From an uncultured virus (IMG/VR IMGVR_UViG_3300043410_000946) (Duplodnaviria; Heunggongvirae; Uroviricota; Caudoviricetes), in the IMG/VR virus record IMGVR_UViG_3300043410_000946: a DNA stretch of 64,000 bases. One strand, given 5' to 3'. This document shows positions 12,093 through 47,157 of this stretch, piece after piece; the stretch's first letter is position 1, and each line of letters opens with the position of its first letter. The notes under the pieces were generated by a model that worked only from the letters and a program-made list of their open reading frames with translations, made no database searches and was not told where the DNA came from. The translations under genes were made by a program, and so were the position numbers.

Positions 12093-12291
12093 ATTTAAAT
12101 TATATCATATCAGGATAAAACGGACATTATTTTATATATATTAAAAAGTTTACCTAATTGTTACAATCCTATATGTCCGATTTGTTATAGTAAGTCATAG
12201 ATTGTCAGAGTTATGGATGGTGTATACTTTAAATATATAAAGAAAAGAAAACTATCTCTAAAGGGTTTATATATTATATATATTATATATA

Positions 12292-15257: not shown

Positions 15258-15741
15258 TTGAGACCACCTTTCTTTTTGTTAATTTATTTAATCTTATTTA
15301 ATTTTTCTTATGTAATAATACTAGCAGATACCCTGCAAAATATCAACTTACTAGCCAGTATTTTCACATATTGAGACGCTCAGCCTGTGTGATTTAGGTC
15401 ACTTATTTGCTACGCTCATATAACAATTTGTTATCTTATTTGGTAGGCTCATTGACCTTTTGCCCTATTTAATTTTCTATAAGAGAATAATAACACATAA
15501 TACCCCAAAAGTCAAGGGTCTAGACGGCGTGTCGCATGTGATTTAGACCACAGTACATATAGGACAAAACGGACATGTGCCTCGGGCCCCCTGTGGATAA
15601 CCCTGTGTATAACTAATGTGGTGTATATCACAAAAATAGTTTGCAGAAACACCCAAAAACACCCCCTATTTGTCGTACCCCCATGCTAGACTTTCTATAT
15701 AGAAAGTTAAGGAAAGACCTTAAACTAGAAAGGAATTAGAA

Positions 15742-15924
15742 ATGACTAATTCAATGCATGAAAGAGCGAAAGGTTTCGCTACAGTTTCAGACTACCCTAG
15801 AGGGTTAATGAATGAATGTGTGTGTGGGCAGGTTGTCCTAGCACCTAAGTTATTCCATGACGGATGTGCATGGTGTGATACCCATAACGACTACGCTACT
15901 AAATGCGTAGCGCTACATAACTAA
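15742..15924 (+). CDS. Small early protein
   Basis: GAAAGGA RBS downstream of the 15671 promoter. Confidence 0.6.
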   Translation: MTNSMHERAKGFATVSDYPRGLMNECVCGQVVLAPKLFHDGCAWCDTHNDYATKCVALHN

Positions 15925-15960
15925 ATATAAATAATTAACTACTAAAGAAAGGTTCAACTA

Positions 15961-16200
15961 ATGAACACTAATGAATACTATGAAGAAATCCGTAAGGATA
16001 TTGCTAAAGATTTTGGTCTAGAGGCAGGTGGCTATATGCCACGCCCTAAATACTACATAACAGTAAGAGAGGCTCAACGCCTTAACAATAAGTACCCTGC
16101 TACAGGTTCAACACGATTTGATATTGTGCCAAACCCTAAAGCGGTTGTAATAATTAAACGACTAAAGGCAATTCGTATTGCTAACAATTGGAAAGGATAA
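15961..16200 (+). CDS. Small early protein
   Basis: GAAAGGT RBS. Confidence 0.6.
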   Translation: MNTNEYYEEIRKDIAKDFGLEAGGYMPRPKYYITVREAQRLNNKYPATGSTRFDIVPNPKAVVIIKRLKAIRIANNWKG

Positions 16201-16202
16201 AA

Positions 16203-16370
16203 ATGAGTATTTATATCTCACTTAAATCAGTGTGTGGAGAAAAATCTGCACAAGTTGATATCTATGATGTTGAATTAAATCCAGATGGTGTTATCTGTTG
16301 CGATAATTGCCAATCAATCTTGATGTGTCGCAAGGCATGGGACTTTTTATATAAAGGAGTAAAGAAATGA
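16203..16370 (+). CDS. Small Cys-containing early protein
   Basis: GAAAGGA RBS; ATG at 16203. Confidence 0.55.
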   Translation: MSIYISLKSVCGEKSAQVDIYDVELNPDGVICCDNCQSILMCRKAWDFLYKGVKK

Positions 16371-16732
16371 AAACCCTACAAGAAAAACTAAATGAGGCTG
16401 CAAAAGCACTTGAGCCAATTCTAGAAGAAACACTAAAAGAAATTGAGGAAAACTAATGAACGAAATAACAAAAGCATTTGAAGATGCAATTCAATTGGAT
16501 CATTTAACACTTGAACAACTAAAAGATTTAGAAAAGATTCTCAATAAAATAGTTATTCAATCAAACGCATAAATATGCGCCCCGAGAATTTGCCTCGGGA
16601 AAATGTGGTCTAAATCACAATCCCTTATTTCCCAAATGTCCGTTTTGTCCTCTCCAATTTGTCGTACCCCTGTGTTATGCTTAAGGCATAGAAAGTTGAG
16701 AAAGGTTCTCAAACTAGAAAGGTTAGGTCAAA

Positions 16733-16993
16733 ATGACTAACACAAATATCGTCAAGGCACTTGATAGTGCTATCGTTTCAGGCTACAAATCTTGGAGCCA
16801 TGTTCCATATCACTACAATGACTACAATGTAAAGGGTAATGACCCTACTTGTAAGCATGAATCTTGGACAGATGTTCAAGGTGTCTCAACTAGACAACCA
16901 TACTTCAATCGCTATTGCGATTCATGTGGTTATCGTAAATTGTTCGTGATGTATGCAAAGTATTGCAGAACTACAAAGAAAGGTCGTAAATAA
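16733..16993 (+). CDS. Small Zn-ribbon early protein
   Basis: RBS; CKH...CDSC. Confidence 0.6.
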   Translation: MTNTNIVKALDSAIVSGYKSWSHVPYHYNDYNVKGNDPTCKHESWTDVQGVSTRQPYFNRYCDSCGYRKLFVMYAKYCRTTKKGRK

Positions 16994-16994
16994 T

Positions 16995-17201
16995 ATGACT
17001 ATTGAAATTTTTAGAATGACTGGCGAAGGTGCTGGTTGGGTTGATATTTCAGAAGCAACTTCTGATGAAAAAATGAATATTGAATTAGGTCTAATGACTA
17101 ACCAATTTCAAATGATGTGTTTCAAATGTCATAAGCCAATTCCAAAAGGAAATGTTTGCTTTGACCATAAAGATGTGAAAGGGGGTATCTACCTTGACTA
17201 A
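16995..17201 (+). CDS. Small early protein
   Basis: GAAAGGT RBS; CFKC...C..H. Confidence 0.55.
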   Translation: MTIEIFRMTGEGAGWVDISEATSDEKMNIELGLMTNQFQMMCFKCHKPIPKGNVCFDHKDVKGGIYLD

Positions 17202-17619
17202 GAAAATTGTTCTAGTTACTTTTGTAACTGATGCTGATTCTGATTTGAAAGCAGTATTTAATTTAAATAAAGTGTTTGCAAAACTTTCTGATGATGAGTT
17301 AGAAAAGTTTGAAGCATTTCAGGTTTTGGATGCAGAGTAAAATCTGCTCCAAAAATCCCGATGCAGCGATCAAGATTCCTCGGGCCGTGTGGTATAAATC
17401 ACATTCAAAATGTCCGTTTTGTGCGTGTCTAAACTTGACTTTTTGAGATTTATCTGCTAGTATTACTACTATAACAATTAAATAAAGGACAAAAAGGCTA
17501 ATGAGCCTAAGCAAATAAATGTGACTAGTATCACAGTGAGCCTTAGCAAATAAATAGCCAATTTGTCAGACCCCCCTGATAGGATAGTCTTATCAACTTA
17601 AAAAGAAAGGTGACAACTT

Positions 17620-17805
17620 ATGTCATATAAAGTCCGTCTTGAGACTGCAAATGGTTCAGTCCATAATGTATCTCTTCCCTCAAAAGGTGCAGTAGCACAA
17701 TTCATCTCAACTTATCCAAATCAGATTCCAATTGGAATCTCAATGCGTGTGTCATGTGACGCACTATGTGTTTCAGGTATAATTCGTGGAAAGAAGGTTC
17801 TTTAA
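17620..17805 (+). CDS. Small early protein, paralog of 14488-14664
   Basis: GAAAGGTG RBS after the 17564 promoter. Confidence 0.6.
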   Translation: MSYKVRLETANGSVHNVSLPSKGAVAQFISTYPNQIPIGISMRVSCDALCVSGIIRGKKVL

Positions 17806-17806
17806 T

Positions 17807-18067
17807 ATGACTAACACAATTCAATTCGCTTATTTTCCCTTTGAACACAAGGGAATTCAATTCGTTTCTAAAATTGCAGAAACCTGCTCATACCTTCCTC
17901 AAATCGTAAATATTGGTGAAGAATTTATCGCCATGAATAAGGGTGCAATAGATGAACTTATGCCAATGCTTGAGGATTTATCTACTGAGGAAATCCTTGA
18001 ATCCCTTGCAGTTATCAACGAAGGCGGAACAGAAATGTTTCTTGAATTGGTAGGTGTTGCAGAATGA
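17807..18067 (+). CDS. Hypothetical early protein
   Basis: ATG at 17807; operon context. Confidence 0.55.
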   Translation: MTNTIQFAYFPFEHKGIQFVSKIAETCSYLPQIVNIGEEFIAMNKGAIDELMPMLEDLSTEEILESLAVINEGGTEMFLELVGVAE

Positions 18068-18367
18068 TGACTCGTAAAGACTATGTAGAAACCGCAAAAA
18101 TTCTAAATAAGTTTATTGAGAGAATTGACTCTCATGAATTTAATGATTTAGTTTTTGAATTTAGTGAGTGGTTCTTAGAAGATAACCCAAGATTCATAAC
18201 AGAAAAGTTTGAGGAGGCTTGCTATAATGTCAGCAAATAGAATCTTAACAACGCTAGTGCAACTAATGTTAGTTGGTGGTTGTATTGCAGTAATTCGTTT
18301 AATGTGGTTTGATTTAAAAAATGATTTGAATGAAATCAAAAACGATTTGCGTAAAAAGTAAATCAAT

Positions 18368-18394
18368 AATCCTGAGTAAGATTTAAAACTGCTC
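18368..18394 (+). ncRNA. Repeated 3'-UTR H-type pseudoknot, copy 1
   Basis: AATC-CT-GAGTA-A-GATT-TAAAAC-TGCTC. Confidence 0.65.
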
Positions 18395-18562
18395 AAAAAT
18401 TCCCGAGACCCTCGGCGCTGACGGCGTGTCGTGATCCATGTGAGATTTATCACATTAGTTGAGCGTCTCATTATTTGAAAATACTCCATAGTAACTTGAT
18501 AATTGTCGCACCCATAGTGTAAGATATTTATATCAAGTTAATTAAAGAAAGAAGGTCGCCTC

Positions 18563-18763
18563 ATGGCTAATCTATACTCCATCCCTTCCCTACTAGTGGG
18601 AAAGACATATCGCTCAAAGACCCTAACAGGTGAAATTGTAAGTGCAGAACCTCACCCTGCACCAATTTGGTATGAAGGCGCAGAAGCCTATCTAATTGAG
18701 GTTAAAAACCCTGCTTCTATTCACACCTCTTACAGAACAGTTGCAGTAAAGACTAGTAACTAG
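18563..18763 (+). CDS. Small early protein
   Basis: GAAGGT RBS after the 18504 promoter. Confidence 0.6.
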   Translation: MANLYSIPSLLVGKTYRSKTLTGEIVSAEPHPAPIWYEGAEAYLIEVKNPASIHTSYRTVAVKTSN

Positions 18764-18769
18764 GTAGGT

Positions 18770-18803
18770 GACTAGTCATGGGCGCCCCAACCTATGACTA
18801 GTC
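18770..18803 (+). terminator. Stem-loop after gene (terminator-like)
   Basis: GACTAGTCAT.../...ATGACTAGTC inverted repeat. Confidence 0.45.
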
Positions 18804-19120
18804 CTGTACCCACCAACCCATGACCATTCATATATAACAAAAGTTTATTAAGATAAAGGATTATGTCCATGTGATTTTGATCACAAAATAATTTTAAGAA
18901 ACTTTAAAAATATCCCCCAATTTGTCCCCACTTTAGGATAAGATTAAGTTATTAAGTAGAAAGAAGGAAGACCCATGGAAGATACTTGTATAGGTTGTAA
19001 TGAGAACGCAGTTAGCATTACAGAATTGTATTGCTTAGATTGCTACCTTGACCATTACGCAGAATCACTTGCAGTCGCAGAAGAAATTAACCAACTATTT
19101 ACAGTAAAGGAAGCCAACTA

Positions 19121-19336
19121 ATGGACTATGAATATGTAATTACAAGTGCCTATGACGGAGAAGCCCCTCATTGGACACAACGCTATGAAAAAGAATATGG
19201 CGCATGGGAGAATTTCTTTCTCTTTACTGATTGGGGTATGGCTAAGGAATACCGCACAGTTAATCTATACACACCAACAGGTAAGTGTTATACCAAGATA
19301 TTCTATCGTGACGGAAGGGTAGTAGTGAAAGCCTAA
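19121..19336 (+). CDS. Hypothetical early protein
   Basis: AAGGA RBS; 71 aa ORF. Confidence 0.6.
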   Translation: MDYEYVITSAYDGEAPHWTQRYEKEYGAWENFFLFTDWGMAKEYRTVNLYTPTGKCYTKIFYRDGRVVVKA

Positions 19337-19472
19337 TGAATACCTATGATATTTGTGGCTCAGTAAGAATTGTAGCCAACTCAGAAGATGAAGCGTTAGA
19401 TATAATGGACAACCTAGTCCGCCAAGCACTAATTGAAGATTACCATGTAAATGAAATTGAGGTACAGTAATA

Positions 19473-19811
19473 ATGGGATACACAACAGCGCAAGAACTAG
19501 CAACAATTCTAGACCTTAACTCAAGCCTTGCCATGCACTTACAGGCTAATCACTATCCGCCAGTACCTACTAGCATGGTACAGCCTTGTATAGATGCTAT
19601 AGATGCATATCACGATGAGGACTATCAGCGTGAGATTGAATTGCCTGAAGGCGTATCATGGCGTGGCAACACAACTGCCCCTGCCTCAGCCATTGTAGAG
19701 GCACACCACCTAGACGCATGGCTACCTCATGCATGGGATTGTGATTGTGGAGATTGTGTCTATGCTGCTAATGAAGATAATGGATATGAAATGGGATTGG
19801 GGTTAGAATAA
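19473..19811 (+). CDS. Hypothetical protein (HLxxNHYPPVP / HHLDAW motifs)
   Basis: GAGG RBS; His-rich motifs. Confidence 0.65.
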   Translation: MGYTTAQELATILDLNSSLAMHLQANHYPPVPTSMVQPCIDAIDAYHDEDYQREIELPEGVSWRGNTTAPASAIVEAHHLDAWLPHAWDCDCGDCVYAANEDNGYEMGLGLE

Positions 19812-19812
19812 A

Positions 19813-20061
19813 ATGGCTGATACAATGAAAAGCATGGAACTCGTATATGCAGATAAGTTAAACGCCTCCCAGTTAATGGTGGGGGACTTAATTAAAATTG
19901 ATGGTGACTTGGTTGAAGTAACCGCTATTGAAGATGACGCAACAGGTGATAACTATTCAATTACTTACACTAATGACTATGGTGATGAAGAAGTACATGA
20001 ATGCACATATGATGCAATATTCAAACTATATATCTATCGTGAAGAAGAAGTAGAAGACTAA
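19813..20061 (+). CDS. Small SH3/KOW-like protein
   Basis: LMVGDLIKIDG...VTAI pattern. Confidence 0.5.
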   Translation: MADTMKSMELVYADKLNASQLMVGDLIKIDGDLVEVTAIEDDATGDNYSITYTNDYGDEEVHECTYDAIFKLYIYREEEVED

Positions 20062-20293
20062 AATCCCCGAGACCGTGTGATCTTTCTCACATAGATCCAA
20101 TTTGACATTTTTAAGATATGTCTGCTAGTATTAAGTTATGAAGAAATCAGCAGAAGAATTACGCAGGCTTATGGAATTACGGCGTTCCAATGCAGCCTCT
20201 GCTGTACCCTCAAAAAAGAAATATACTCGCAAGGGTAGAAAATGTCAGGCAGAAATGCTACAATTAAAGTACAACCTAAAGTAAGGACCCCCT

Positions 20294-21013
20294 ATGAAAC
20301 TACTACGCTCTAAAGATAGAAAGGTGGCTAATCTTGTCACAAAAAATGGAAAGCAAGCAGCAATTGCAAATACCTTTGGATTACCTGCAGGAAAAAACTA
20401 TTCATGTCCTGGTGCAACGACTGTCTGCGAAAGTGTTTGCTACGCAGGTCGCCTTGAAAAAGTATTCCCAACAGTAAAAAAGAATCTACTTCATAACTGG
20501 AACCTACTTAAGGACGCTAATCTTGATGAGATGATTGTTATGCTTGAAGAGATGATTGTTGATTTCAAAAAAGATTGCGATAAGAAAGACGCCCCTAAGT
20601 TATTCCGCATTCACTGGGATGGCGATTTCTTTAATGATACTTATACTATGGCCTGGAAATATATAATTATTCAACACGATGATGTACAATTTTGGGTCTA
20701 TACTCGTGTAAAAGAATCTGCAGAAATGCTAAACGGATTAGAGAATCTTTCTTTGTACTATTCTACAGATAGCGACAATAAAGAGATTGGAATTAATCTA
20801 AAGAAGACCCAAGGTATCAAATTGGCTTATCTTGCTAAGAACTTTGCAATTGGTCAAGAAGACATGAAGGCCCTTACAAATAAGCCAGGCGCCAAGTGTC
20901 CTGAAAATAAAAAGGCCATTCCACTTATTAGCAATGCAGGCTCAGCATGTGTATCTTGCTCACTGTGTGTATTTAATAAGGCTGATATTGTATTCAGTGC
21001 GAGTAAGAAATGA
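20294..21013 (+). CDS. Gp88-like (radical-SAM-like Fe-S) phage protein
   Basis: FGLPAG..SCPGAT..C..VCYA; FRIHWDGDFF; FWVYTR; CP...CVSCSLC. Confidence 0.7.
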   Translation: MKLLRSKDRKVANLVTKNGKQAAIANTFGLPAGKNYSCPGATTVCESVCYAGRLEKVFPTVKKNLLHNWNLLKDANLDEMIVMLEEMIVDFKKDCDKKDAPKLFRIHWDGDFFNDTYTMAWKYIIIQHDDVQFWVYTRVKESAEMLNGLENLSLYYSTDSDNKEIGINLKKTQGIKLAYLAKNFAIGQEDMKALTNKPGAKCPENKKAIPLISNAGSACVSCSLCVFNKADIVFSASKK

Positions 21014-21330
21014 GTTTCTTATTCTATGCAGCAATGACAACGCTTGTACTTATAAGCATTCTAGGAGGAGCAGGGAACTAAGGATCCCCTGCAAAATCCT
21101 CGGCGCCCCTGTGATATTTATCACAAGATAATTTACGACTACGATTTGATATTTCTGAGATTTCCTGCTAGACTTATATCATAAGCAAAACCAAGATGGT
21201 CTGGCTTGTTTGGTGTGATTAAGGTCACAGTCCAAATAGTGAGATTATTAAGATTTTGATTTGTATTTCTGAGATTTTTCAGTTATACTTAATACATAAG
21301 GAAAACCCAAACAGAAAAGGAAAAACAAAA

Positions 21331-21495
21331 ATGGCAGTAGCAACACAGAACTACAAGGTAGGCGACCTCTTTACAACACAGAAGTCAAAGGTTACAGGAA
21401 CTATCGCAGAGATTATTCCACAGGCTAATGGTAATGTTCGTGTAAAACTTGATGTTAATGGTCAGGCTCGTTACACAACTTGGACAGCAAAGTAA
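21331..21495 (+). CDS. Small SH3-like protein
   Basis: AAAGGA RBS; YKVGD...GTI...VRVKL. Confidence 0.6.
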   Translation: MAVATQNYKVGDLFTTQKSKVTGTIAEIIPQANGNVRVKLDVNGQARYTTWTAK

Positions 21496-21561
21496 GTTTG
21501 GCAATAACGCCAAAATAAAAACACGCCCCACAGAAATGCGTGTCTAAACAAATAGAGTGGG

Positions 21562-21589
21562 ACAACCTGAGTAAGTTGTAAAACTGCTC
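21562..21589 (+). ncRNA. Repeated pseudoknot, copy 2
   Basis: ACAAC-CT-GAGTA-A-GTTGT-AAAAC-TGCTC. Confidence 0.65.
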
Positions 21590-21632
21590 ACTCAAAACCC
21601 CCAAAGACCCAAACAGAAAAGGAAATAACACA

Positions 21633-22046
21633 ATGGCTAGAGCAATCTCAGTTAAGGTAGCAACAACTAAGGTAATCAAGGCACTTGAGGCTTCACTTGC
21701 AAAGTTAGAAAGTGATTTTGCCTCACAAGAAGCAAACAAGGCAAAGTATGATGAGGCTAAGAAGGCTTGGGCAAAGGAAGTTGGAAAACTTGCAGTTGCT
21801 CAAATCGCAAAGGCTGAAAATCTATCTGCTAACAAGCGTTACAATGGTGAGATTAACCTTGACTTTAATCTCCCTGCTGGTTCTATTGAACTACCTGATG
21901 AACCACAGCAGGATTTTGTAACAATGCACTCATGGCAATATGAAAATCAAAAGAGTGAAATTGAAAATGCAATTCGTATTCTCAAGATGACTGATGAGGA
22001 AACAGTAAGTGCCTCAACTTTTAAGTCAATCGCTCAGTATCTCTAA
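21633..22046 (+). CDS. Hypothetical protein
   Basis: AAAGGA RBS; 137 aa. Confidence 0.7.
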   Translation: MARAISVKVATTKVIKALEASLAKLESDFASQEANKAKYDEAKKAWAKEVGKLAVAQIAKAENLSANKRYNGEINLDFNLPAGSIELPDEPQQDFVTMHSWQYENQKSEIENAIRILKMTDEETVSASTFKSIAQYL

Positions 22047-22055
22047 TTAACAAAC

Positions 22056-22082
22056 TCACCTGAGTAAGTGATAAAACTGCTC
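22056..22082 (+). ncRNA. Repeated pseudoknot, copy 3
   Basis: TCAC-CT-GAGTA-A-GTGA-TAAAAC-TGCTC, 4 nt before tRNA-Trp. Confidence 0.65.
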
Positions 22083-22086
22083 ACCT

Positions 22087-22157
22087 ATCGCCCAAGTGTT
22101 ACGGTAGCATGACGATCTCCAAAGTCGTTGGACAAGGTTCAATTCCTTGGGGCGGTG
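22087..22157 (+). tRNA. tRNA-Trp(CCA)
   Basis: ATCGCCC/GGGCGGT acceptor; ACGAT-CTCCAAA-GTCGT; CAAGG-TTCAATT-CCTTG. Confidence 0.85.
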
Positions 22158-22286
22158 CAAAGTTTTGGCCCGATGGCCATGTGATTAATCTCACACCGTT
22201 ATGATCGTAGGTTTACGTCCTAGGATTTGCATTTGTCAGACCACCCTGCTAGAATTATATTATTACCCCCTACGAAAGGACATCTA

Positions 22287-22778
22287 ATGGGATTAGACAT
22301 GTATCTCTCAGCACGAAAGTATGTTGAGAAAATTGACTGGAAGAAAATGCAAGAGGACTATAACACTCCTTATGCAGATGCAACTTACCCTAACTATGCA
22401 GAGATTGTTTCTCTTGCAGGCTTGTCAGGATTAGATAAAGATATCTATGGCGCTCATGTTTCTGTAACTGCATTGTATTGGCGCAAGGCTAATGCGATTC
22501 ATAATTGGTTTGTTAATAATGTTCAGCATGGCAACGATGACTGTGGTGAGTACTATGTCTCCCATGAAAAAATAGCAGAGTTGCTAAATGTTTGTGAGGA
22601 AGCATACAAGACTAAGAACCATAAAGTCCTTGAGCCTATTGGTGGATTCTTCTTTGGTTCAACAGATATTGACGAGTGGTATTGGGAAAGTATCAAGCGC
22701 ACCATCAAGGAAATCAAGTCTATCAAGAAGCATAAAGACTATGACCGCTTATCCTTCTACTACTCTTCATCATGGTAG
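22287..22778 (+). CDS. Conserved phage protein (MGLDMY...YWRKANAIHNWF)
   Basis: GAAAGGA RBS; recognisable phage family motif. Confidence 0.7.
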   Translation: MGLDMYLSARKYVEKIDWKKMQEDYNTPYADATYPNYAEIVSLAGLSGLDKDIYGAHVSVTALYWRKANAIHNWFVNNVQHGNDDCGEYYVSHEKIAELLNVCEEAYKTKNHKVLEPIGGFFFGSTDIDEWYWESIKRTIKEIKSIKKHKDYDRLSFYYSSSW

Positions 22779-23359
22779 GAGATAGCATGGAATGGATTAA
22801 ATATTCATTTGTCTGTAATGGCGAATGCGATGCTTTGCTAGAGTTTACCTTCAAGGATGGCTTTGACTGGCCTAGTGGTGTGGTAGAAGTCACATGTCCT
22901 TGTGGGTCCAATACCACACTTTTGTCAGTGGATAATGCTACAATTAATAATAACAACGAACAGAAAGAAGATAGCCCAATGAATGCAACAACAGAATACC
23001 TTGAGTCAATGGTTTCATCCCTACAGGAGCAACTCAAGTCTCATCAGAACTGCGATTACTGGAAGCGTGAGAATGGCCGTATTCAGTCACAAATCATTGA
23101 CACACTTAATGATGCAATTGAAGATACCTATAAGTCACGCAATGAAATCATTACTGAGATTGCAGAAATCATTGACTATGCATTAACCAAAGAAATTCAA
23201 TTTACTGCAACAATGCGTTTTGTTGGAACCATTTCAGTACCAGCGCTTGAAGCAGAAGACTTTGATTTATCAGGAGTACTTGATGAAGCATATGTTGATA
23301 TTAATAATGGCGATGTAATTATTGACTCATATGAATTATATGATGCTGAAGAGTGTTAG
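22772..23359 (+). CDS. Hypothetical protein; Zn-ribbon N-terminal module plus C-terminal module with an internal start near 22980
   Basis: CNGEC...CPC; internal promoter at 22923. Confidence 0.55.
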   Translation: MVGDSMEWIKYSFVCNGECDALLEFTFKDGFDWPSGVVEVTCPCGSNTTLLSVDNATINNNNEQKEDSPMNATTEYLESMVSSLQEQLKSHQNCDYWKRENGRIQSQIIDTLNDAIEDTYKSRNEIITEIAEIIDYALTKEIQFTATMRFVGTISVPALEAEDFDLSGVLDEAYVDINNGDVIIDSYELYDAEEC

Positions 23360-23384
23360 TTTCTGATAGGGGGCTATCTAGAGA

Positions 23385-23411
23385 GGACCTGAGCATGTCT
23401 TTAAACTGCTC
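23385..23411 (+). ncRNA. Repeated pseudoknot, copy 4
   Basis: GGAC-CT-GAGCA-T-GTCT-TTAAAC-TGCTC. Confidence 0.65.
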
Positions 23412-23574
23412 CTCAATTCCCGCAAAAACCTCGGGGGCGCTGTGATTAATATCACACTGTGTTTAAGATCACCTTTAAGAAATGTCCGTTTTGCCCCATG
23501 TCTAACTAGTCTGATTTGCATTTGTCGCCCCTGACTGCTAGAATTATTACATATCAAAAAGAAAGAAGGAAAAA

Positions 23575-24591
23575 ATGGCTCATGAACTAGAAACTCAAAA
23601 CGGCGTTGCATCTTTTGCATCATTCAGAGAACCTGCTTGGCATGGTCTTGGAACTGTTTTCACAGAAGAAAAAACAACTGCACAAATGCTTGAGGCTGCG
23701 AACCTCTCTAATTGGAATGTTCGTCTTGAAGATGTAACAATGCCTACTAATCTTACATCAGATAAAAACTATCAGTATGTATTGCGTACTAACCCTACAG
23801 ATAATACTCAAACAGATGTTTTGGGTATTGTTGGAGAGCGTTACCATGTTATGCAAAATGAAGATTTATTCTCATTTGGTGATAACATTCTAGATGGTGG
23901 TGGTCGTTGGGAAACTGCTGGCGCTATTCGTGGTGGTCGTGTTGTGTTTGGCTCTCTTGCATTAGAGCGTGAAACAGTTCTAGACCCTAGCGGTGTTGCA
24001 GATAAGGTAAAAACTTATCTTCTCATTAACACATCACATGACGGGTCTATTGCAATTCAGGCTTCAATCACACCTGTTCGTGTTGTATGCGCTAACACTC
24101 TTAACATGGCACTTGGTCGCACAAAGCGTAAGGGTGGCGTAAAGCAATCTTTCAAGATTCGTCACACTCAAACAGCAAGTGGCAAGGTGCAGATTGCTCG
24201 TGAGACTCTTGGTCTTGCTAATGCATACATGGACGAATTCGACAAGATGGCAAAGCAACTTTTTGAAACAGAAGTTAATGCTAAAGTGTTTAACGACATT
24301 TTGCTTGCCTCATATCCAAAGCCTGAGAAAGATGCAAAGGGCGCAATCAAGAAGTGGGAAAACAAAATCGACACCATTAACGACATCTACACAGGTGAAT
24401 TTAATGGCATGATTGCTGGCACAGGCTGGGGCGCATTTAATGCACTTACAGAACGCCTTGATTGGTATCGCTCTGCTCGTGGTGGCAATAACGAATCTAT
24501 CTTGGCAAGTGCAAGTGGATTTGACCCTGCAATTAACGCAGAAAAGAATCGCTTGCTAACTGTTGTGCAGAATGTTTTGCAAGTAGCATAA
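23575..24591 (+). CDS. DUF932/DUF945-family phage protein
   Basis: MAHELE...PAWHGLG...WETAGAIRGGRVVF...NTSHDGS...PVRVVCANTL...IRHT. Confidence 0.85.
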   Translation: MAHELETQNGVASFASFREPAWHGLGTVFTEEKTTAQMLEAANLSNWNVRLEDVTMPTNLTSDKNYQYVLRTNPTDNTQTDVLGIVGERYHVMQNEDLFSFGDNILDGGGRWETAGAIRGGRVVFGSLALERETVLDPSGVADKVKTYLLINTSHDGSIAIQASITPVRVVCANTLNMALGRTKRKGGVKQSFKIRHTQTASGKVQIARETLGLANAYMDEFDKMAKQLFETEVNAKVFNDILLASYPKPEKDAKGAIKKWENKIDTINDIYTGEFNGMIAGTGWGAFNALTERLDWYRSARGGNNESILASASGFDPAINAEKNRLLTVVQNVLQVA

Positions 24592-24597
24592 CAAAAT

Positions 24598-24624
24598 AAT
24601 CCTGAGCATGATTTAAAACTGCTC
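24598..24624 (+). ncRNA. Repeated pseudoknot, copy 5
   Basis: AATC-CT-GAGCA-T-GATT-TAAAAC-TGCTC. Confidence 0.65.
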
Positions 24625-25156
24625 TCCGCTCTGCGGATCATAATAAATAAATATGCACGTGGATGCATAAAAATCCTCGGGGCCTGTGATGCAAATCACA
24701 TGACATTTCCTGTGGATAACTTTAAGATGAGTTGATATTTTTCCCCAAACCTGCTATCCTGAATACATGACTCAAACAACCTATAAACCATATACCATAG
24801 ACGAACTAGTTACCTCTATCTATGAGGATAACCTAGAACATTTTGAGCAATCTACAGAAGACTGTGATTGTATTATTCATCAAGCCATGTGGCTTATTGT
24901 CAAGCATTGGGAGGGATAATGTACGACATTAACAATAACTGTATTGTTTGTGATGAGTATATCTTTGACCAACATAAGAAGTCTTGTGAATACTATGTAG
25001 ATGAGGACTATTTAACATTTACTAGGCGTATTAGAGAGATAGCAAATAATACTGAGATTCATATGTGATGAAGATCACATTCAATACCCTGGCCCCTGAC
25101 TTGCATTTGTCAGACCAAAACCTTATAATTAATACATACAAGAAAAGGAGACCCAA

Positions 25157-25327
25157 ATGCCAACATATGATGTGAAGGTAGTCGTAGAATACTTCTATGA
25201 GGTAGAAGCAGATAACGCAGAGCAAGCAGAACAAATGGGCTGGGAATATGAAGACTATTCTTATGGCGCAGAAGTTTATTCCATTGATGTAGATGAACAG
25301 CCTGAAGAAGATGAGGAAGAAAACTAA
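25157..25327 (+). CDS. Small acidic protein (EVEADNAEQAE motif)
   Basis: AGGAG RBS after the 25108 promoter; read manually. Confidence 0.6.
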   Translation: MPTYDVKVVVEYFYEVEADNAEQAEQMGWEYEDYSYGAEVYSIDVDEQPEEDEEEN

Positions 25328-25530
25328 TGGACATTACAAGTCGTGAAGTAACCTATCGCTCTGCCGTTGAGCAAATCTTTTTCTCAGACGGAACTGAACT
25401 CTGTATCACTATTGGTACTGACACATCTGGTGGCGGTAGCATTGATATTGAATATGACTGGGTAACTGGTAAGCCTGATTGGGCTGAGTTCCTAGATGAA
25501 GATACATTAGTAAACTATGAGGTAATTTAA
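25327..25530 (+). CDS. Hypothetical protein
   Basis: Coupled ORF. Confidence 0.55.
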   Translation: MDITSREVTYRSAVEQIFFSDGTELCITIGTDTSGGGSIDIEYDWVTGKPDWAEFLDEDTLVNYEVI

Positions 25531-25739
25531 TGGACTATTTAATTAATTATATAAAGTTACATATCACAAGTCTGGAGCAAGACGCTGAAGAACTAGATAA
25601 GCAGATGGGCTTCTATGACGACCTTGACTGTGATGAGTATAAGGATTTGGAGATAGAGGATATCTTTAATAATGGACAAATAGCCGCAATGCACCATATC
25701 CTACAAATAGCGCTTGACTATAAAGCCACACTCGTGTAA
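25530..25739 (+). CDS. Hypothetical protein
   Basis: Coupled ORF; GAGG RBS. Confidence 0.55.
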   Translation: MDYLINYIKLHITSLEQDAEELDKQMGFYDDLDCDEYKDLEIEDIFNNGQIAAMHHILQIALDYKATLV

Positions 25740-25768
25740 AATTAATATATAACCCAAAGGAGACCCAA

Positions 25769-26041
25769 ATGGAAGAATCATCAAGTAAGTTACCACCACA
25801 CTATCAGCAACTCGTAGACGCAGGTGTATCAGGAATTGACATCATGCATGGTATGTTAAAGATTGATATGTTAGAGGCAGAGGCCCGTTATACAGAGGCA
25901 CAACGCATTGAGGAAGAGAACGACTACTCTGACGCAATGGAATCTATGGACAGGAAGTATGAAGAGGGATTTCTTGACGCCCTGTCTATGATGTATAAAT
26001 ATACATATGATATCTCGTTTGCTATTGCAGACAAGAACTGA
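25769..26041 (+). CDS. Hypothetical protein
   Basis: AAGGAG RBS. Confidence 0.6.
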   Translation: MEESSSKLPPHYQQLVDAGVSGIDIMHGMLKIDMLEAEARYTEAQRIEEENDYSDAMESMDRKYEEGFLDALSMMYKYTYDISFAIADKN

Positions 26042-26209
26042 TAGAATTATATAAGAGGAGACCCAAATGAAAGATGAAGTAAGACAGTTACTTAGTGACC
26101 TAGATAAGCCAATTAAGGTTAAAGAGTGTATTGAGTGTGGTTATATTTTGCCTACCAAGACTATTCCTGATACCTGCCCAAATTGCAAAAGAACTGTGGA
26201 GAAGTAACT

Positions 26210-26485
26210 ATGGGAATGCGTGATGAATCTTGGTGTGCTGACTGCGGAGCAGGCATGCACTATACAGATAACGAAGATGCAATCTGTGGAGAATGTGCTG
26301 TAGAGCGAGGCACGGACTTAGTAGAAACGATCATTAGATATCTTGAGAATCAAAAGAATGAATTCGAACATCGCCTTGAACTTGCAGATGGAGCGGATTC
26401 CGTGTATCATTATCTAGAGGGCTGTGTTGAGACCTCTGACCTATTTCTACATAAAGTAAAGGACCTGTATCAAAATGGATTTTAG
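26210..26485 (+). CDS. Zn-ribbon hypothetical protein
   Basis: CADC...CGEC. Confidence 0.55.
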   Translation: MGMRDESWCADCGAGMHYTDNEDAICGECAVERGTDLVETIIRYLENQKNEFEHRLELADGADSVYHYLEGCVETSDLFLHKVKDLYQNGF

Positions 26486-26921
26486 AGAAATGACAATGGA
26501 TGAGTGGGAAATTGCATTTAAGCCAATCCCTAATCATATAGACGAAAATGCTGCATTCCAAAACGAGGACGGCATTGGAATAATGTTTGAGACATATGGA
26601 GCAGAGGTAGAGTTTGTAAAGAAAGCAGACCCTAGACACATCTGGACCTATGGTGACGGAGATGATGGAGAGTCTCATATCTGGAATGGTTGGCACTTTG
26701 TAAATAGACTAGGATACTTTATTACTGAAGAGCCTTGCCCTGAAGGTGTAGAGATTCAAGTTAATTTAAATGATTACTATTATTTCTGTGAAGGGTGCCA
26801 TCAAGAATGGGAAGGCGCTGCTGGCCATCTAGTTAATGATACATTGGGTGAGATTGAGAAATGCCCAGCATGCGCTACCATGGAAGAAATGAAAGAGTAC
26901 GAAGTTAACCTTCCTGCATAG
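26475..26921 (+). CDS. Hypothetical protein
   Basis: FETYG.E...IWT...GWHFVNRLGY plus C-terminal CxxC pair. Confidence 0.65.
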   Translation: MDFREMTMDEWEIAFKPIPNHIDENAAFQNEDGIGIMFETYGAEVEFVKKADPRHIWTYGDGDDGESHIWNGWHFVNRLGYFITEEPCPEGVEIQVNLNDYYYFCEGCHQEWEGAAGHLVNDTLGEIEKCPACATMEEMKEYEVNLPA

Positions 26922-27037
26922 CAGGCCATAGGCTAGTGAGAATGGGTCCTCACTGGCCACTGGGGGAGGCAGGGTAAACCTGCAGTGGACTTGCCTCCCC
27001 AACAATTTTTTGGTATAATCATAAAGAGAGGAGCAAC

Positions 27038-27265
27038 ATGGCTAGAGGTAGATTATTTAGAGAACCTGTTAATACAAATGAAACAAGACGAGCAGAAAAA
27101 CTAGCAAGGCTTCTTACAGAAGATTTTGGGGCAGACTTAGAACGCATTGGATATTACTTAGTTAGAAACCACCCCATGATTGTGTATAGGAGATTTGAGG
27201 TTTTGAACTTGGCAGCACAAGAAGAGTATGATAAACTAGTAGGAGAGATGAAAGGTACAAAATGA
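27038..27265 (+). CDS. Hypothetical protein
   Basis: TGGTATAAT promoter and GAGGAG RBS. Confidence 0.6.
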   Translation: MARGRLFREPVNTNETRRAEKLARLLTEDFGADLERIGYYLVRNHPMIVYRRFEVLNLAAQEEYDKLVGEMKGTK

Positions 27266-27558
27266 ATTTTGCAGATAAGGCTGGAGTAATTGGACAGTTA
27301 TGGATTGAGTTTCGTAACGATGAAGACTTCAGCAAGTTCATGGAATACAACGACCTAGGTTGCCCACTAGCATACATGATTGCGGAGGGTATTGCAGAAC
27401 CAACACCACTAGGAACTGATATGGTAGAAGAAACATTCAAGATGTTTTCTATGCTAGTTGATGTGACTGAGGAACAGATTGATGAACTTGAAAATATCAA
27501 TTTGATTAGCGTTCTGGAACTTGGCTACAAGAATCGTCAGGCTAAAGAAGAAGAGTAA
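27262..27558 (+). CDS. Hypothetical protein
   Basis: Coupled ORF; YNDLGCPLAY. Confidence 0.6.
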   Translation: MNFADKAGVIGQLWIEFRNDEDFSKFMEYNDLGCPLAYMIAEGIAEPTPLGTDMVEETFKMFSMLVDVTEEQIDELENINLISVLELGYKNRQAKEEE

Positions 27559-27599
27559 GTGATCTTAAAGTGGGGGCTACGGCCCCTGCTTTTGCCTGC

Positions 27600-28630
27600 G
27601 CCCCCGAGGATCTGGACAAATAGGACATATCTCCCAAACCACATTTTCTGGACATATCATTACGATCCCAAACATTTTTCTCCCAGATATTACGATCAAA
27701 CATTTATTTTCCCCAAACTAAGATTACGAAGATCAAATATTTTTTCCCAAACCTTATACCATATCAAACCTTGTTTGTCAAACACATCTCCTTATATCAA
27801 ACAAATAGTGGTTTGTCAACTATAGTGTTTTATACTATAGGTATTACGATCAAGATCTTTTTATCCCCTGCCCTGGCGCAGCCCCCCGTTTGTCGGTGGT
27901 ACCTGGTAGAATACGGGCTTTACGATCCCACCCAAAACGGCAGGGGATCTAGGAATCCTCTGATACCAAATCCCCCTAGTACTATATACAAACCTTTATA
28001 TCTGATATAAAACAATTATTTAAAACAAATTGTTTTTTATTTATTTCTTTTTATTTATTTAAATAATAATTAATTTATCAAACAAATGTCGACAAAATGG
28101 ATCAAATTTGTCATATAATTTGCGTAGCAAATATAGTTGACAAATACTTATGTTTGGTATATAATGCATGGCCCAATATGAATTTGACAAAGGTTTGAAT
28201 GTTTGGTATAGGGGGAAAAGGTGGTTTGACATTACGGCCCCTTCTATGATATGCTCTATACTCCACTTCCCTCCACTATCCTCCACTTTAAGAATGTCTA
28301 AATAAATATTCAGTAAGATTTATCTGTGGATAAACCTGTGGATAACTATGTAGAAATGGTACCATATAGACTGTAGAAATGGTATCCTAGCCTGTGGATA
28401 ACTCTGAATATAGGGGTACAATCTCTCTGAAAATAGGGGTATAAAACCTAACAAATACACTCCAAACCTAACAAACCTAACATATCAAACCTAACAAATA
28501 AGGTATTTGAACACCTTAAAACCTAACAACCTAAGTGTCTATAACACCTTAGACTGTGGATAACTTTCCAAAACCTAACAATCCTGATGCTTTAACAAAC
28601 ACCCATTATCATATATTTGTGGATGACCCT
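27600..28630. other. Candidate replication origin
   Basis: DnaA boxes TGTGGATAA at 28325, 28337, 28393, 28555; AT-rich tract about 28005-28080; ATTACGA and AACCTAACA repeats; no credible ORF. Confidence 0.6.
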
Positions 28631-32008: not shown

Positions 32009-32461
32009 GTGAGAGATTCAGTACAATACCTTGATGATTTAGCCAATCATTTTGCTCATCGTGATTGGGATTATACTAGAAATCATGGTATCAAGCATAT
32101 TAGATATGTGGATAATGATAGGGATGGTTTAGGATATAGGCTTGCAAGAAGTTTTAGATGGCTACTTAAGCGACCAGCATACTTTCCGCTATCTTTAAAA
32201 ATGAGTTTATGGCTTTCAGCATACGCTTTAAAGAAACAAGATAACTTACCAGATGGACATTTAGATGGCGGTAATGTAATCACTCATTGGGAAGAGACTG
32301 GAGAATATTTACAGATGGTTCAGCCTAGTGTTGGAGCATTACTAGTAAATTTTCTAAAAGAAGAACCTGATCATAAACATGCAAAGATAATTATTGCTGA
32401 ATTAGATAGACTATCAAACCGATATAGTGAAAGAATTAAGAATGGGGAAACAAGTGAATAA
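32009..32461 (+). CDS. Hypothetical protein
   Basis: 150 aa ORF in operon. Confidence 0.55.
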   Translation: MRDSVQYLDDLANHFAHRDWDYTRNHGIKHIRYVDNDRDGLGYRLARSFRWLLKRPAYFPLSLKMSLWLSAYALKKQDNLPDGHLDGGNVITHWEETGEYLQMVQPSVGALLVNFLKEEPDHKHAKIIIAELDRLSNRYSERIKNGETSE

Positions 32462-33620
32462 GATAACGGATAAACTAATTAATTGGGCTTCTATTGTAGA
32501 AGATGAGGCTTTGAATCAGGCTAAGAATACTTCTTCTATGCCTTTTGTATACCCCCACCTTGCACTGATGCCTGATGTTCACTTTGGTCGTGGCTCTACA
32601 GTAGGCTCTGTAGTCCCTACAAAGGGTGCTATCATGCCTGCATGTGTTGGAGTAGACATTGGCTGTGGAATGATGGCTGTAAAGACCTCACACAAGATTG
32701 AGAATCTTCCTGAATTAAATAAGCAGGGCATTCGTGAATCAATTCAATCACAAATTCCACTATCTGCTGGTAAGTATAATAATCGTATTAAGGATGATGC
32801 ACAAGATGAAGTAGCAATGCTTCAAGTATATGCTCGTGATGCAGGGTTTAATCCTGATGAACTAGATAAGAACTGGCGTGTGCAACTTGGATCACTTGGT
32901 TCTGGAAACCACTTCATTGAAGTAACAGTAGATGAGGATGGGTATGTTTGGTTATTCCTTCACTCTGGTTCTCGTGGTATTGGTAATAAGATTGCTTCAA
33001 AGCATATTAAGATTGCACAGAACTATTGTTCCGATATCGGTACTATACTTCCTGATCAAGATTTAGCATATCTTGTTGAAGGCACACCAGAGTTTAATGA
33101 GTATATTGCTCAAATGAACTGGGCACAAACATTTGCAATGATGAATCGTGAAGTTATGATGAAGCGTGTTAAGGCTGCATTCAAGTACCATGCTGGAGAG
33201 TTTGAAGTACTTGAAGAGGTTAACTGTCACCATAACTTTACTCAACAAGAAGAACACTTTGGTGAAAAACTTTGGATTACTCGTAAGGGTGCAATCTCTG
33301 CTAAGGCTGGGCAACTTGGTTTGATCCCTGGCTCAATGGGTGATTTGTCATATGTTGTTGAAGGGCTTGGAAACCCAATGTCTTATAATTCTGCTCCACA
33401 TGGTGCAGGTCGTCAGCATTCTCGTGGTTCTGCTCGTAAGACATTTACGATGGAAGACCTTGAGGAAAAAATGCAGGGTATTGAATGGTCACACTCTTCA
33501 GCATTCCTTGATGAGCACCCTGGTGCATACAAGCCTATTGACAAAGTAATGCAAGATGCTGTAGAATTAGTTAAAGTAAAGCACACATTCAAACAAATTA
33601 TTAATGTTAAGGGAGACTAA
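32442..33620 (+). CDS. rtcB: RtcB RNA ligase
   Basis: MPDVH.G.G, GVDIGCG, LGSGNHFIE, HSGSRG, HHN, RKGA, PGSMG, HGAGR, AYK, VKG. Confidence 0.95.
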   Translation: MGKQVNKITDKLINWASIVEDEALNQAKNTSSMPFVYPHLALMPDVHFGRGSTVGSVVPTKGAIMPACVGVDIGCGMMAVKTSHKIENLPELNKQGIRESIQSQIPLSAGKYNNRIKDDAQDEVAMLQVYARDAGFNPDELDKNWRVQLGSLGSGNHFIEVTVDEDGYVWLFLHSGSRGIGNKIASKHIKIAQNYCSDIGTILPDQDLAYLVEGTPEFNEYIAQMNWAQTFAMMNREVMMKRVKAAFKYHAGEFEVLEEVNCHHNFTQQEEHFGEKLWITRKGAISAKAGQLGLIPGSMGDLSYVVEGLGNPMSYNSAPHGAGRQHSRGSARKTFTMEDLEEKMQGIEWSHSSAFLDEHPGAYKPIDKVMQDAVELVKVKHTFKQIINVKGD

Positions 33621-34365: not shown

Positions 34366-34613
34366 TGGATAAAATTGAATGGCCAGAAGATCAATTAGAC
34401 TATTCAGATAGTTTTACTATTAAAGTAACTAAAGTTAACTATGGTGGCTTCTTTAATCATTGGGAAGCCAATATAGAATTTTCTGATACTAATGAGTATT
34501 ATTGTGAAGTTACCGCTCCAACTATGGGAGGGGCTATTGACGAAGTAATCAATTACCTGTATGATAGTAAGTATGAATGGACAAAGGATGATGCAAATGG
34601 TGCACCTAACTAA
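34365..34613 (+). CDS. Hypothetical protein
   Basis: Coupled ORF. Confidence 0.55.
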   Translation: MDKIEWPEDQLDYSDSFTIKVTKVNYGGFFNHWEANIEFSDTNEYYCEVTAPTMGGAIDEVINYLYDSKYEWTKDDANGAPN

Positions 34614-39454: not shown

Positions 39455-39910
39455 TTATTCCATCTCTACATCTTTAAGCGATGCACGAAGTTGCCAGCAC
39501 CACTTTTGAAGTGCAGTCTGACGATCTGCCATAAAATTTGCAAGACCATTCTGCTTTGCAGCAGTTGCAGCATCAAAACCTGCAATATATCTCATGATAG
39601 CAATATCGAATGAATTACATAGATCGGCAATCATAGATTCTGGATCTGTTGAAACTGGGTTTTCTGGAATAACACTTAGTGATGCCAGACGGGAAAGAGA
39701 AAATGGGGCATAAGAATTAACATCAAGCATTCGAATCCACTCAGCAAAGGTATCAATAGCACCATCTAGGTCAGCATAGATATCATCTAGTTTATCGTGC
39801 CACTGTGGGAAGTCATCTCCTTCAACATTCCAGTGATACCCCTTTGCTTTATAGGCCAAAGCAACGGCATCTGCTGTAAGACCCTTAAGTGTATTAATTA
39901 ACTCTTCCAT
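39455..39910 (-). CDS. dps: Dps / ferritin-like DNA protection protein
   Basis: YHWNVEG.DF...H...IY......D..AE; leaderless ATG after TGGTATAAT. Confidence 0.9.
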   Translation of the reverse strand: MEELINTLKGLTADAVALAYKAKGYHWNVEGDDFPQWHDKLDDIYADLDGAIDTFAEWIRMLDVNSYAPFSLSRLASLSVIPENPVSTDPESMIADLCNSFDIAIMRYIAGFDAATAAKQNGLANFMADRQTALQKWCWQLRASLKDVEME

Positions 39911-39928
39911 AACTACCATTATACCAGA

Positions 39929-45866: not shown

Positions 45867-46868
45867 TTACATCTCATCAGTCTTATCAAAAAATGTTCTG
45901 AATGCATCATCAGATTCAATGGTTTCAACTATTTTTTCTGCGCTTCTAGGCATATTTGGTATACCAATATACTTGTGTCCACGATTTGTTGCAACTAGTT
46001 GATAAAAATGATGGATTGCTTCTTGTGCATGTGCAAGTTTGTCTGGCCCTGGTTGATCGTGAAATGTTACCAATGGCGTCATAAGTTCTACCATAGTGTT
46101 GTTTGGCTGCATAAAGAAAGCATTTGTCAATCCAGAACTAGTTAAAGATACAAGAGTCTTAACAGAATAAAAGAAGTTAATCTGATCTTCAAACGACTTA
46201 AAGTCTTCTGGACAAATAATTTCAAAGCCTTTTTCTGCAAAGTATCTTTCTAGAATTTTTTCATTATCAATTCTATTATCATGCTTTGCACTTAAACCAT
46301 CATGGAGTTGTCTTGACCAGTCTCTATCGCCCATATACTTTCTGCTTAGATATACATTTCTATATGGTTCGACATTTTTATCTTTTACATAATGCTTGTA
46401 TGCCTCAAACACTCTGTTACCAGAATTTGCAACATACTGATTTGTAATCATTACATGGAAGTTACTAACATTGACTGCATCATATCCTCTTGTATCTACT
46501 TCATATACTGTAAATCCCTTATCTCTTATAACTTTAAAGAAAAAGTCGTAGAACAAATTATGTCTATCAAACCATATGTTTGCGACATCAATATACACCT
46601 CTGCATTAGGAACATCATCTAATGCCTTGAGAGCAGGGCCAACAGAGTCATTAAAGAAGTGATATGGTCCAGAACTTAGGCTAATCAAAACCTTTTCCTT
46701 AGTAGACTTTATCGTAAGCACTTTATCAGATTCTGGAACGGGATCCTCTAAGAACGGCATCATGAACATGTATGGGCCATGCATACCGTTTATGCGTAAA
46801 CTGTGAGCACCTTCAAAATAATCAAATGCTGAATTTGTTTTTGTCAGACCTATCACTGTTGATGACAT
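45867..46868 (-). CDS. GT61 / DUF563-family glycosyltransferase
   Basis: YHFFND; VYLSR; RI.NE; F..I.PE...FEDQI..F; SGLTN..FM. Confidence 0.75.
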   Translation of the reverse strand: MSSTVIGLTKTNSAFDYFEGAHSLRINGMHGPYMFMMPFLEDPVPESDKVLTIKSTKEKVLISLSSGPYHFFNDSVGPALKALDDVPNAEVYIDVANIWFDRHNLFYDFFFKVIRDKGFTVYEVDTRGYDAVNVSNFHVMITNQYVANSGNRVFEAYKHYVKDKNVEPYRNVYLSRKYMGDRDWSRQLHDGLSAKHDNRIDNEKILERYFAEKGFEIICPEDFKSFEDQINFFYSVKTLVSLTSSGLTNAFFMQPNNTMVELMTPLVTFHDQPGPDKLAHAQEAIHHFYQLVATNRGHKYIGIPNMPRSAEKIVETIESDDAFRTFFDKTDEM

Positions 46869-47157
46869 CTGAAGACCTTTCTATTGTTAACGCTTCCCAG
46901 ACATTAGCCCAATCGGATTTTTCCTTGTGACTATTAAACTCTTTAGATATTATACCATTTTCTAGGTATACCCCACCCCATACGCCCCACTCTTTTTGTG
47001 AAACGCCAACAGCAAAGCACATTCTGCTTACTGGACAATCCGAACAGAGACTATCAACGGCTGGTCTTAGTAGTTCATCATCTTCGTACTTTTCAAAAAA
47101 TATATTTGTGTCGTAGTCAAGACATAAACCTTCATCTTTCCATTCAAACTTTGGCAT
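46822..47157 (-). CDS. whiB: WhiB-family transcription factor
   Basis: W...LC...FF...CSDCPV...C...EWGVWGG. Confidence 0.9.
   Translation of the reverse strand: MPKFEWKDEGLCLDYDTNIFFEKYEDDELLRPAVDSLCSDCPVSRMCFAVGVSQKEWGVWGGVYLENGIISKEFNSHKEKSDWANVWEALTIERSSDVINSDRSDKNKFSI

Follow-up and report, generated by a model that had tools for sequence, protein, structure and literature searches.

Conserved -26/-10 promoters of probable PafBC type in the small-gene block of an uncultured actinophage, with host PafBC as one of several likely inputs

The question of which factor reads a recurrent promoter element is raised by a 64,000-nucleotide stretch of DNA from an uncultured virus of the Caudoviricetes (IMG/VR record IMGVR_UViG_3300043410_000946), which in its full length is called the window here. 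Eleven sites of the form TGTCNN-N10-TANNNT had been predicted from the sequence as early promoters that wire phage genes to PafBC, the DNA-damage activator of the host. Their geometry is that of the PafBC promoter consensus tGTCgg(N10)tA(N3)T, which is described without a -35 consensus and whose GTC triplet is read by R46 and R50 of PafB (PMC8635444). PafBC is activated by single-stranded DNA (ssDNA) of 6-12 nt (PMC11804915). The sequence evidence indicated that the sites are real SigA-type promoters in the small-gene block of a large actinophage whose relatives include Streptomyces cluster BE phages. Host RNA polymerase adapted by PafBC is the most likely reader of the TGTC element (-28 to -25), an assignment made with moderate confidence. 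The sites probably represent a known promoter class in phage form, real and conserved, for which host PafBC would be one of several inputs. The predicted sites are listed below.

15671..15692, plus strand: -26/-10 promoter, TGTCGT/TAGACT, extended -10, no -35; gene start 15742.
16660..16681, plus strand: -26/-10 promoter, TGTCGT/TATGCT, extended -10; gene start 16733.
17564..17585, plus strand: -26/-10 promoter, TGTCAG/TAGGAT, extended -10; gene start 17620.
18504..18525, plus strand: -26/-10 promoter, TGTCGC/TAAGAT, TTGATA -35 at 18 bp; gene start 18563.
18923..18944, plus strand: -26/-10 promoter, TGTCCC/TAAGAT, neither -35 nor extended -10; gene start 18975.
20243..20264, plus strand: -26/-10 promoter, TGTCAG/TACAAT, in the 3' end of open reading frame (ORF) 20138-20284, before the GP88-family gene 20294-21013.
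22227..22255, plus strand: dual promoter, TTGCAT -35 and TGTCAG/TAGAAT at 22234, extended -10; ATG 22287.
22923..22944, plus strand: -26/-10 promoter, TGTCAG/TACAAT, in ORF 22772-23359; in-frame ribosome-binding site (RBS) and ATG at 22979.
23516..23544, plus strand: dual promoter of the DUF932 gene 23575-24591, TGTCGC/TAGAAT at 23523.
25101..25129, plus strand: dual promoter, TTGCAT -35 and TGTCAG/TATAAT at 25108; gene start 25157.
27891..27912, plus strand: -26/-10 site, TGTCGG/TAGAAT; no RBS or gene downstream.

All the hexamer pairs were confirmed with ten nucleotides between the halves, and the GTC triplet lies in the -23 to -28 element, N10 before TANNNT, in 11/11 sites. The TTGCAT -35 at 17 bp reported for 22234, 23523 and 25108 was also confirmed, and a fourth -35 was found at 18504. 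A -35 is thus present in 4/11 sites and an extended -10 in 8/11, and only 18923 has neither. The statement that most sites precede an RBS and a gene was borne out for ten of them, which have an RBS and an ATG downstream, and failed for 27891; the sites at 20243 and 22923 lie within upstream coding frames. The consensus TGTCRG assigned to the set fits six sites, while four read TGTCGY and one TGTCCC.

Comparison with shuffled controls showed a local enrichment and a weak signal for the whole window. The loose pattern was found 19 times in the window against 12.2 expected (at least 19 in 6/100 shuffles), with eight matches, four on each strand, beyond the eleven sites. Between 15.5 and 28.1 kb, a region picked post hoc from the limits of the finding itself, 11 sites on the plus strand were counted against 0.81 in 300 shuffles (maximum 5). 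The minus strand of this region had 1 site, and the other spacings from N4 to N23 gave 0-3 each.

The element was then counted in 56 relatives, defined as 80 related loci minus those with more than 30% of 25-mers in common. The motif is enriched there at the same spacing, with 519 gene-strand sites at N12 (counted from TGTC) compared with 51-157 at other spacings; the exception is N18 with 211, a peak formed by TTGTCA serving as an ordinary -35. Exact TGTCAG occurred 387 times for a background of 9.0. Single-base variants at G, T and C were close to background (23/16, 14/11.5 and 8/17.3), and changes were tolerated at -24 and -23 (27/12 and 44/24.8). At these positions, which the pattern leaves unconstrained, the 516 relative sites showed A in 83% and G in 10% (-24) and G in 80% (-23).

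Two promoters illustrate the conservation. At the DUF932 promoter the motif is retained in 54/56 loci, with 38 different spacers, and TTG is found at -35 in 53. The site at 20243 lies in a gene of 48 amino acids (ORF 20138), and its motif is present in 41/46 orthologues. The Cys-Gln pair of these orthologues is encoded TGT-CAG in 39/39, CAG making up 23/84 Gln codons in 21 window genes, and the codon of the -10 ends in TA in 39/39, while the codons upstream are for the most part variable. Three variants with Ser-Gln read AGT-CAG with GTC retained, and two relatives preserve the motif in a shifted frame. Because TGT-CAG is held at synonymous positions and the motif is kept in a shifted frame, selection at 20243 acts on the DNA.

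The block at 15.3-27.6 kb is a series of small genes, the majority without a family. In a complete relative (G006), 14/17 TGTCR sites fall within the corresponding 13-kb block, and position and design suggest that the block would be expressed early. The window has a GC content of 38% and 13 tRNAs, and encodes WhiB and RecA (Pfam); RecA, SSB and resolvases are among the phage's own genes. The best cultured matches are Streptomyces cluster BE phages (RecA 49%, DUF932 gene 54% identity), in which DUF932 is gene 2 at the left genome end. One window protein has an identical copy on a 97.8-kb contig, and complete relatives measure 112-117 kb. The phage is presumably a freshwater or lake virus. Its host is probably actinobacterial, of the order Nanopelagicales (acI), and acI genomes were taken as the probable hosts.

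This order possesses both pafBC and the motif. A WYL match was obtained in 150/151 genomes of Nanopelagicales and at least two matches in 149; a PafC domain was found in 57/61 genomes of the class, a tally that includes the unpublished G634 and G627 (55/59 without both). In Candidatus (Ca.) Planktophila versatilis (G007), pafB and pafC are adjacent and upstream of genes that we take to be tatA- and tatC-like. The acI PafB keeps K5, R8, R46, R50, K52 and R56 of the solved chains and not W70. This wing tryptophan, missing from acI PafB (L153:2138-3079), is a polymerase contact in the mycobacterial structure. NGTCRG-N10-TANNNT is found upstream of recA in 29/30 probable-host loci. In G007 it also precedes a carD-like gene and genes that we assume from their sequence to be LysM-like and exonuclease-like, and the intergenic sites number 11 at N10 compared with 0-4 at other spacings. 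The phage site at 27891 has 19/22 bases identical to the site upstream of a Ca. Planktophila gene that is presumably carD-like, to judge from its N-terminal sequence.

Other links between phage and host were sought as well. The block's last small gene, ORF 27262-27558, has a homologue (L198:10126-10407) in an integrase-bearing island of Ca. Planktophila versatilis, which as a host link would be a single anecdote; a homologue search gave 110 matches, hypothetical or without a name. The same island has a PafBC-type site upstream of a Cys-rich gene of 516 amino acids. When the phylum was searched with the adenosyltransferase under a strict cut-off, 0/301 genomes matched and the positive genome itself was missed. 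Isolated acI phages are unrelated phages of 39 kb (PMC10202952).

No WYL or PafB-like reader was found in the relatives. The WYL domain was obtained in 0/5 complete relatives, and the CRP-type helix-turn-helix (HTH) and HTH_17 in 0/2 each. A PafB- or PafC-like HTH was looked for in six-frame translations of the window, the 80 loci, G001, G006 and Bmoc (26,480 frames with the control included) and was not found, the best phage E value being 3.8 and that of the control 1e-54. No regulator other than WhiB, sigma factors included, was detected with Pfam in 118 window ORFs and 106/114 G006-specific ORFs, nor with PHROGs in 60 ORFs. The WhiB gene is located as follows.

46822..47157, minus strand: phage WhiB-family gene, the sole recognisable phage transcription factor.

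These results bear on the possibility of an adaptor encoded by the phage, which in the manner of T4 MotA/AsiA would read the -26 box of delayed-early promoters independently of ssDNA. Such an adaptor is considered unlikely. It would agree with the coexistence of ordinary -35 and -26 promoters, where ORF 20138 with its ordinary promoter stands upstream of a -26 promoter as in two tiers, with the T at -28 and the C-rich spacer that distinguish phage sites from host recA sites, with the many small genes lacking a family, and with the phage WhiB being a binder of sigma-A domain 4. The negative searches argue against it, as do the 19/22 bases shared by 27891 and a host site and the non-specific nature of the contacts that WhiB makes with DNA upstream of -35 (PMC10243135).

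The promoters also carry elements missed by the original prediction, namely CRP-type boxes, BldC-type repeats and an extended -10 or -35 at 10/11 sites. Candidate boxes, ordinary promoters and predicted sites of other host regulators are as follows.

15388..25079: 16 candidate CRP/GlxR-type palindromes, TGTGA-N6-TCACA, with centres at -54.5 to -102.5 of the downstream promoters; ten are perfect (17520, 18439, 18870, 20076, 21110, 21214, 22180, 23441, 24685 and 25064) and six have one mismatch (15388, 15537, 15617, 16604, 17388 and 22879).
15318..15346, minus strand: ordinary -35/extended -10 promoter of the leftward arm, CRP-type box at -84.5.
15487..15515, minus strand: ordinary -35/-10 promoter, CRP-type box at -64.5.
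17435..17463, plus strand: ordinary -35/extended -10 promoter, box at -74.5.
20102..20131, plus strand: ordinary TTGACA promoter of ORF 20138, box at -54.5.
21146..21174, plus strand: ordinary -35/extended -10 promoter, box at -63.5.
21261..21289, plus strand: ordinary -35/-10 promoter, box at -74.5.
24732..24760, plus strand: ordinary -35/extended -10 promoter, box at -74.5.
16637..16650, 17411 and 23483 (plus strand), 15575 and 12126 (minus strand): predicted BldC-type 9-bp direct repeats.
15526..15533, with a second at 18423: predicted WhiA-type GACAC box.
15592..15612, minus strand: predicted pair of DnaA-box-like 9-mers; others at 24719, 28333, 28345, 28401 and 28563.

The CRP-type boxes stand upstream of 9/11 -26 sites and of seven ordinary -35 promoters. 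The rest of the window holds three further one-mismatch boxes, and perfect boxes were expected 0.02 times. Box centres cluster at -54.5, -64.5, -74.5 and about -85 (R = 0.88, 0/5000 random sets; p = 0.002 for the -26 class alone), the distances being counted from an assumed, unmapped start site 7 nt after the -10. Equal peaks were obtained in the relatives, where 205/434 strict sites have a box. Helically phased boxes are the pattern of class I CRP activation, and a CRP-family protein (HTH_Crp_2 match) was found in 2/3 acI genomes. Rex was set aside as the reader of the palindrome because the inner bases are mostly T..A and not the A..T of the Rex consensus.

The repeat TGTCC-N4-TGYCC occurs five times in the window and 90 times in the relatives, compared with 0-3 in five shuffles. 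Near promoters it has a single orientation (65 versus 0), a count coming mostly from one orthologous promoter. Its 9-bp direct repeats with an AT-rich tract followed by C would suit a BldC operator, and a G007 protein matches the solved BldC chains 6AMA/6AMK with E 1e-24. The 9-mers listed above resemble the DnaA-box consensus. A LexA box was found neither in the window nor in G006, and twice in the 56 relatives.

A decoy function was considered in view of these boxes, in which SigA and CRP alone would drive the promoters and the boxes would mainly titrate PafBC-polymerase, CRP, BldC, WhiA and DnaA after genome replication. The extended -10 or -35 at 10/11 sites is consistent with it, as are the ten perfect CRP boxes within 8 kb compared with none in an acI genome of 1.33 Mb, the site at 27891 without a gene and the citing of PafBC as a regulator of mycobacterial phage resistance (PMC12848934). 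The CRP-type boxes are, however, phased to each -10, the BldC-type repeats share one orientation, and an RBS and gene follow 10/11 sites, a register that a decoy does not require. The decoy function likewise appears unlikely.

Reading of the box by another host factor, either a different WYL protein or ClgR, an earlier candidate reader of RecA-NDp, is very improbable. The acI genomes do have one more WYL-containing frame, a third, which is longer (about 740 amino acids), and GACA, the core that WhiA and sigma domain 4 recognise, has TGTC as its reverse complement. Host recA sites and the solved PafBC complex nevertheless have exactly the spacing of the phage sites. WhiA was itself rejected as a reader of TGTC, as it needs GACAC upstream of -35, whereas the TGTC at -28 to -25 comes without the fifth base and G is found at -29 in 7% of phage sites only. 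Chance or an artefact of composition, suggested by the weak whole-window count and the region chosen afterwards, is refuted by strand and spacing specificity, RBS linkage, conservation and synonymous constraint.

Reading by PafBC-adapted host polymerase, the preferred explanation, has several observations weighing against it. As all loci were centred on one gene, the pooled counts include orthologous promoters and are not independent. T is found at -28 in 401/410 phage sites and C in 66% of host recA sites. Five of the 11 window sites deviate from TGTCRG, and four of these, 18923 too, score below 0 on the host recA profile. PafBC-dependent promoters are characterised by no -35 and by SigA alone being insufficient, which does not describe the window sites. 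An extended -10 or -35 is present in 10/11 of them and in 325/401 relative sites (neither in 76/401), and for this reason the phage sites may function without PafBC. Perfect CRP boxes numbered 0 in the scanned 1.33-Mb genome of G007, and the literature extracts examined gave no description of a class I CRP contact on PafBC-adapted polymerase. For the host, WhiB allows assignment to phylum level only (PMC12143481), 7/13 phage tRNAs have 74-84% identity to one acI genome and are uninformative, and the ORF 27262 profile matched G007 only (1/201 genomes of the order; 1/401), G007 being in the alignment. A phage adaptor of an unrecognised family is possible because most phage genes are without a family.

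The proposed wiring of phage genes to host PafBC is supported by the geometry, by pafBC and the recA motif in the probable host order and by the finding of no phage reader. The claim that PafBC would switch the genes on is overstated because of the extended -10 or -35 at 10/11 sites, the seven ordinary promoters and the phased CRP-type boxes. Strict dependence on PafBC is unlikely, since 325/401 phage sites have an extended -10 or -35 compared with 1/32 host recA sites. On the sites as they stand, PafBC is more likely an amplifier among several host inputs than the sole on-switch.

Under this proposal, SigA holoenzyme would give a basal level of transcription from the extended -10 or -35, assisted by host CRP at the phased boxes and modulated through the BldC- and WhiA-type sites. 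ssDNA would then activate PafBC, and PafB would read GTC as established for mycobacteria. The ssDNA could come from sunlight or prior damage, from processing of the incoming linear genome, or from phage recombination and replication with the phage's own RecA, SSB and resolvases. The phage cassettes would thereby be boosted, and the host alarm sending polymerase to -26 promoters would also raise phage expression. Tentatively, and with less confidence than in the reading of the TGTC element, an abundant family of lake actinophages may be envisaged whose first block reads the state of the host, through a feed-forward loop in which infection itself triggers PafBC while CRP, BldC, WhiA and DnaA act as gates, with a weaker, old form in BE phages.

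No description of phage promoters read by PafBC was found in the literature, among the matches listed. If the proposal is true, a lytic-type phage drives its own genes through the ssDNA-sensing activator of its host and encodes no adaptor. PafBC belongs to the WYL family, elsewhere regulating anti-phage systems, and an alarm linked to phage resistance would become a phage activator. Sunlight damage and cell state would be tied to the infection of abundant freshwater bacteria, and there would be natural PafBC promoters that also contain CRP, -35 and extended -10 elements, a case beyond the solved complex.

Further features were observed around the sites. The promoter at 22923 is the best match to the host profile among the window sites, and is absent from 9/9 orthologues of the upstream part of ORF 22772-23359. 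In this ORF a Cys-rich small gene appears to be fused to the gene after it; in 9 relatives the Cys-rich gene terminates by itself. The promoter and a CRP-like box at -64.5 both lie within the coding part of the ORF. The word CCTCGG (15580, 16593, 17378, 18410, 21098, 23429 and 24675 on the plus strand, 27609 on the minus strand) starts many intergenic cassettes, often just upstream of a CRP-type box, and BE phages have the word GGCCGCCCCGG at a similar place. Six copies of CCTGAGYA-N-AAACTGCTC (18371, 21566, 22059, 23388 and 24601, plus strand; 41552, minus strand) are each found a short way past a stop codon. The element forms a short hairpin that shows no compensatory change and matches no Rfam family, and it occurs 3 times in G006; an RNA processing, antitermination or operator element is possible. 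Outside the block, the divergent promoter regions 12126-12185 and 42700-42752 carry BldC-like and TGTTACAAT words.

The Rfam scan of the window gave 12 tRNAs and no other RNA family. A lone tRNA-Trp lies at 22087-22158 within the small-gene block, away from the other 12. Few genes lie in the stretch 27560-28560, which holds three ordinary promoters, short AT-rich repeats and DnaA-like boxes; its -26 site at 27891, which has no gene, is succeeded by an inverted repeat. Judged against BE phages, the stretch would approximate the position of the genome end. Other window genes encode an RtcB ligase (32427-33620), a cobalamin adenosyltransferase (34561-35142), a ferritin-like protein (39455-39919) and a DUF885 protein (52032-53759). 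A complete relative encodes a B12-dependent ribonucleotide reductase and many 2OG-Fe(II) oxygenases.

Among known systems, the phage sites share with PafBC promoters (RecA-NDp, recA P1-type; PMC8635444, PMC11804915) the 22-nt geometry, GTC at -27 to -25 and a canonical -10. They differ in mostly adding an extended -10 or -35, in having upstream CRP-type boxes and in preceding genes that are not repair genes, and the LexA box of host recA promoters is not seen in the window. Like the middle promoters of T4 (MotA box and -10; named in PMC8635444), they belong to a lytic-type phage and place a non-sigma upstream element near a canonical -10. The T4 adaptors AsiA/MotA are phage-encoded, whereas none was found here and the element copies a host motif. 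As in class I CRP/GlxR promoters, TGTGA-N6-TCACA stands at steps of about 10 bp upstream of the core. The phage peaks (-64.5, -74.5 and -85.5, with assumed starts) are about 3 bp upstream of the E. coli optima, and unlike in that class the box is paired with a -26 core in 9/16 cases. The TGTCC-N4-TGYCC 9-bp repeat is close to the optimised site of the BldC-bound whiI repeats (PMC5859096), and unlike the whiI operator it sits on phage DNA.

The closest cultured comparison is the terminal-repeat block of cluster BE phages (Stanwilliamsviridae: Bmoc, Targaryen, Spilled and Tomas), which holds the orthologous DUF932 gene (53-54% identity for the best records) and has in common with the phage block one promoter per small gene and BldC-like repeats. 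DUF932 surroundings in Rhodococcus phage Trina and Streptomyces phage Stigma showed no enrichment, with one N12 site each. In the first 11 kb of the four BE phages, 10 gene-strand TGTC-N12-TANNNT sites were counted compared with 1-4 at other spacings, and nine of them stand before genes. These sites are mostly TGTCC(T/C/G) with a -35, account for 4/24 promoter-like rows in one tally and lack CRP boxes. The counts are suggestive of a weaker version of the design in BE phages, and its presence in cultured Streptomyces phages makes the idea testable now.

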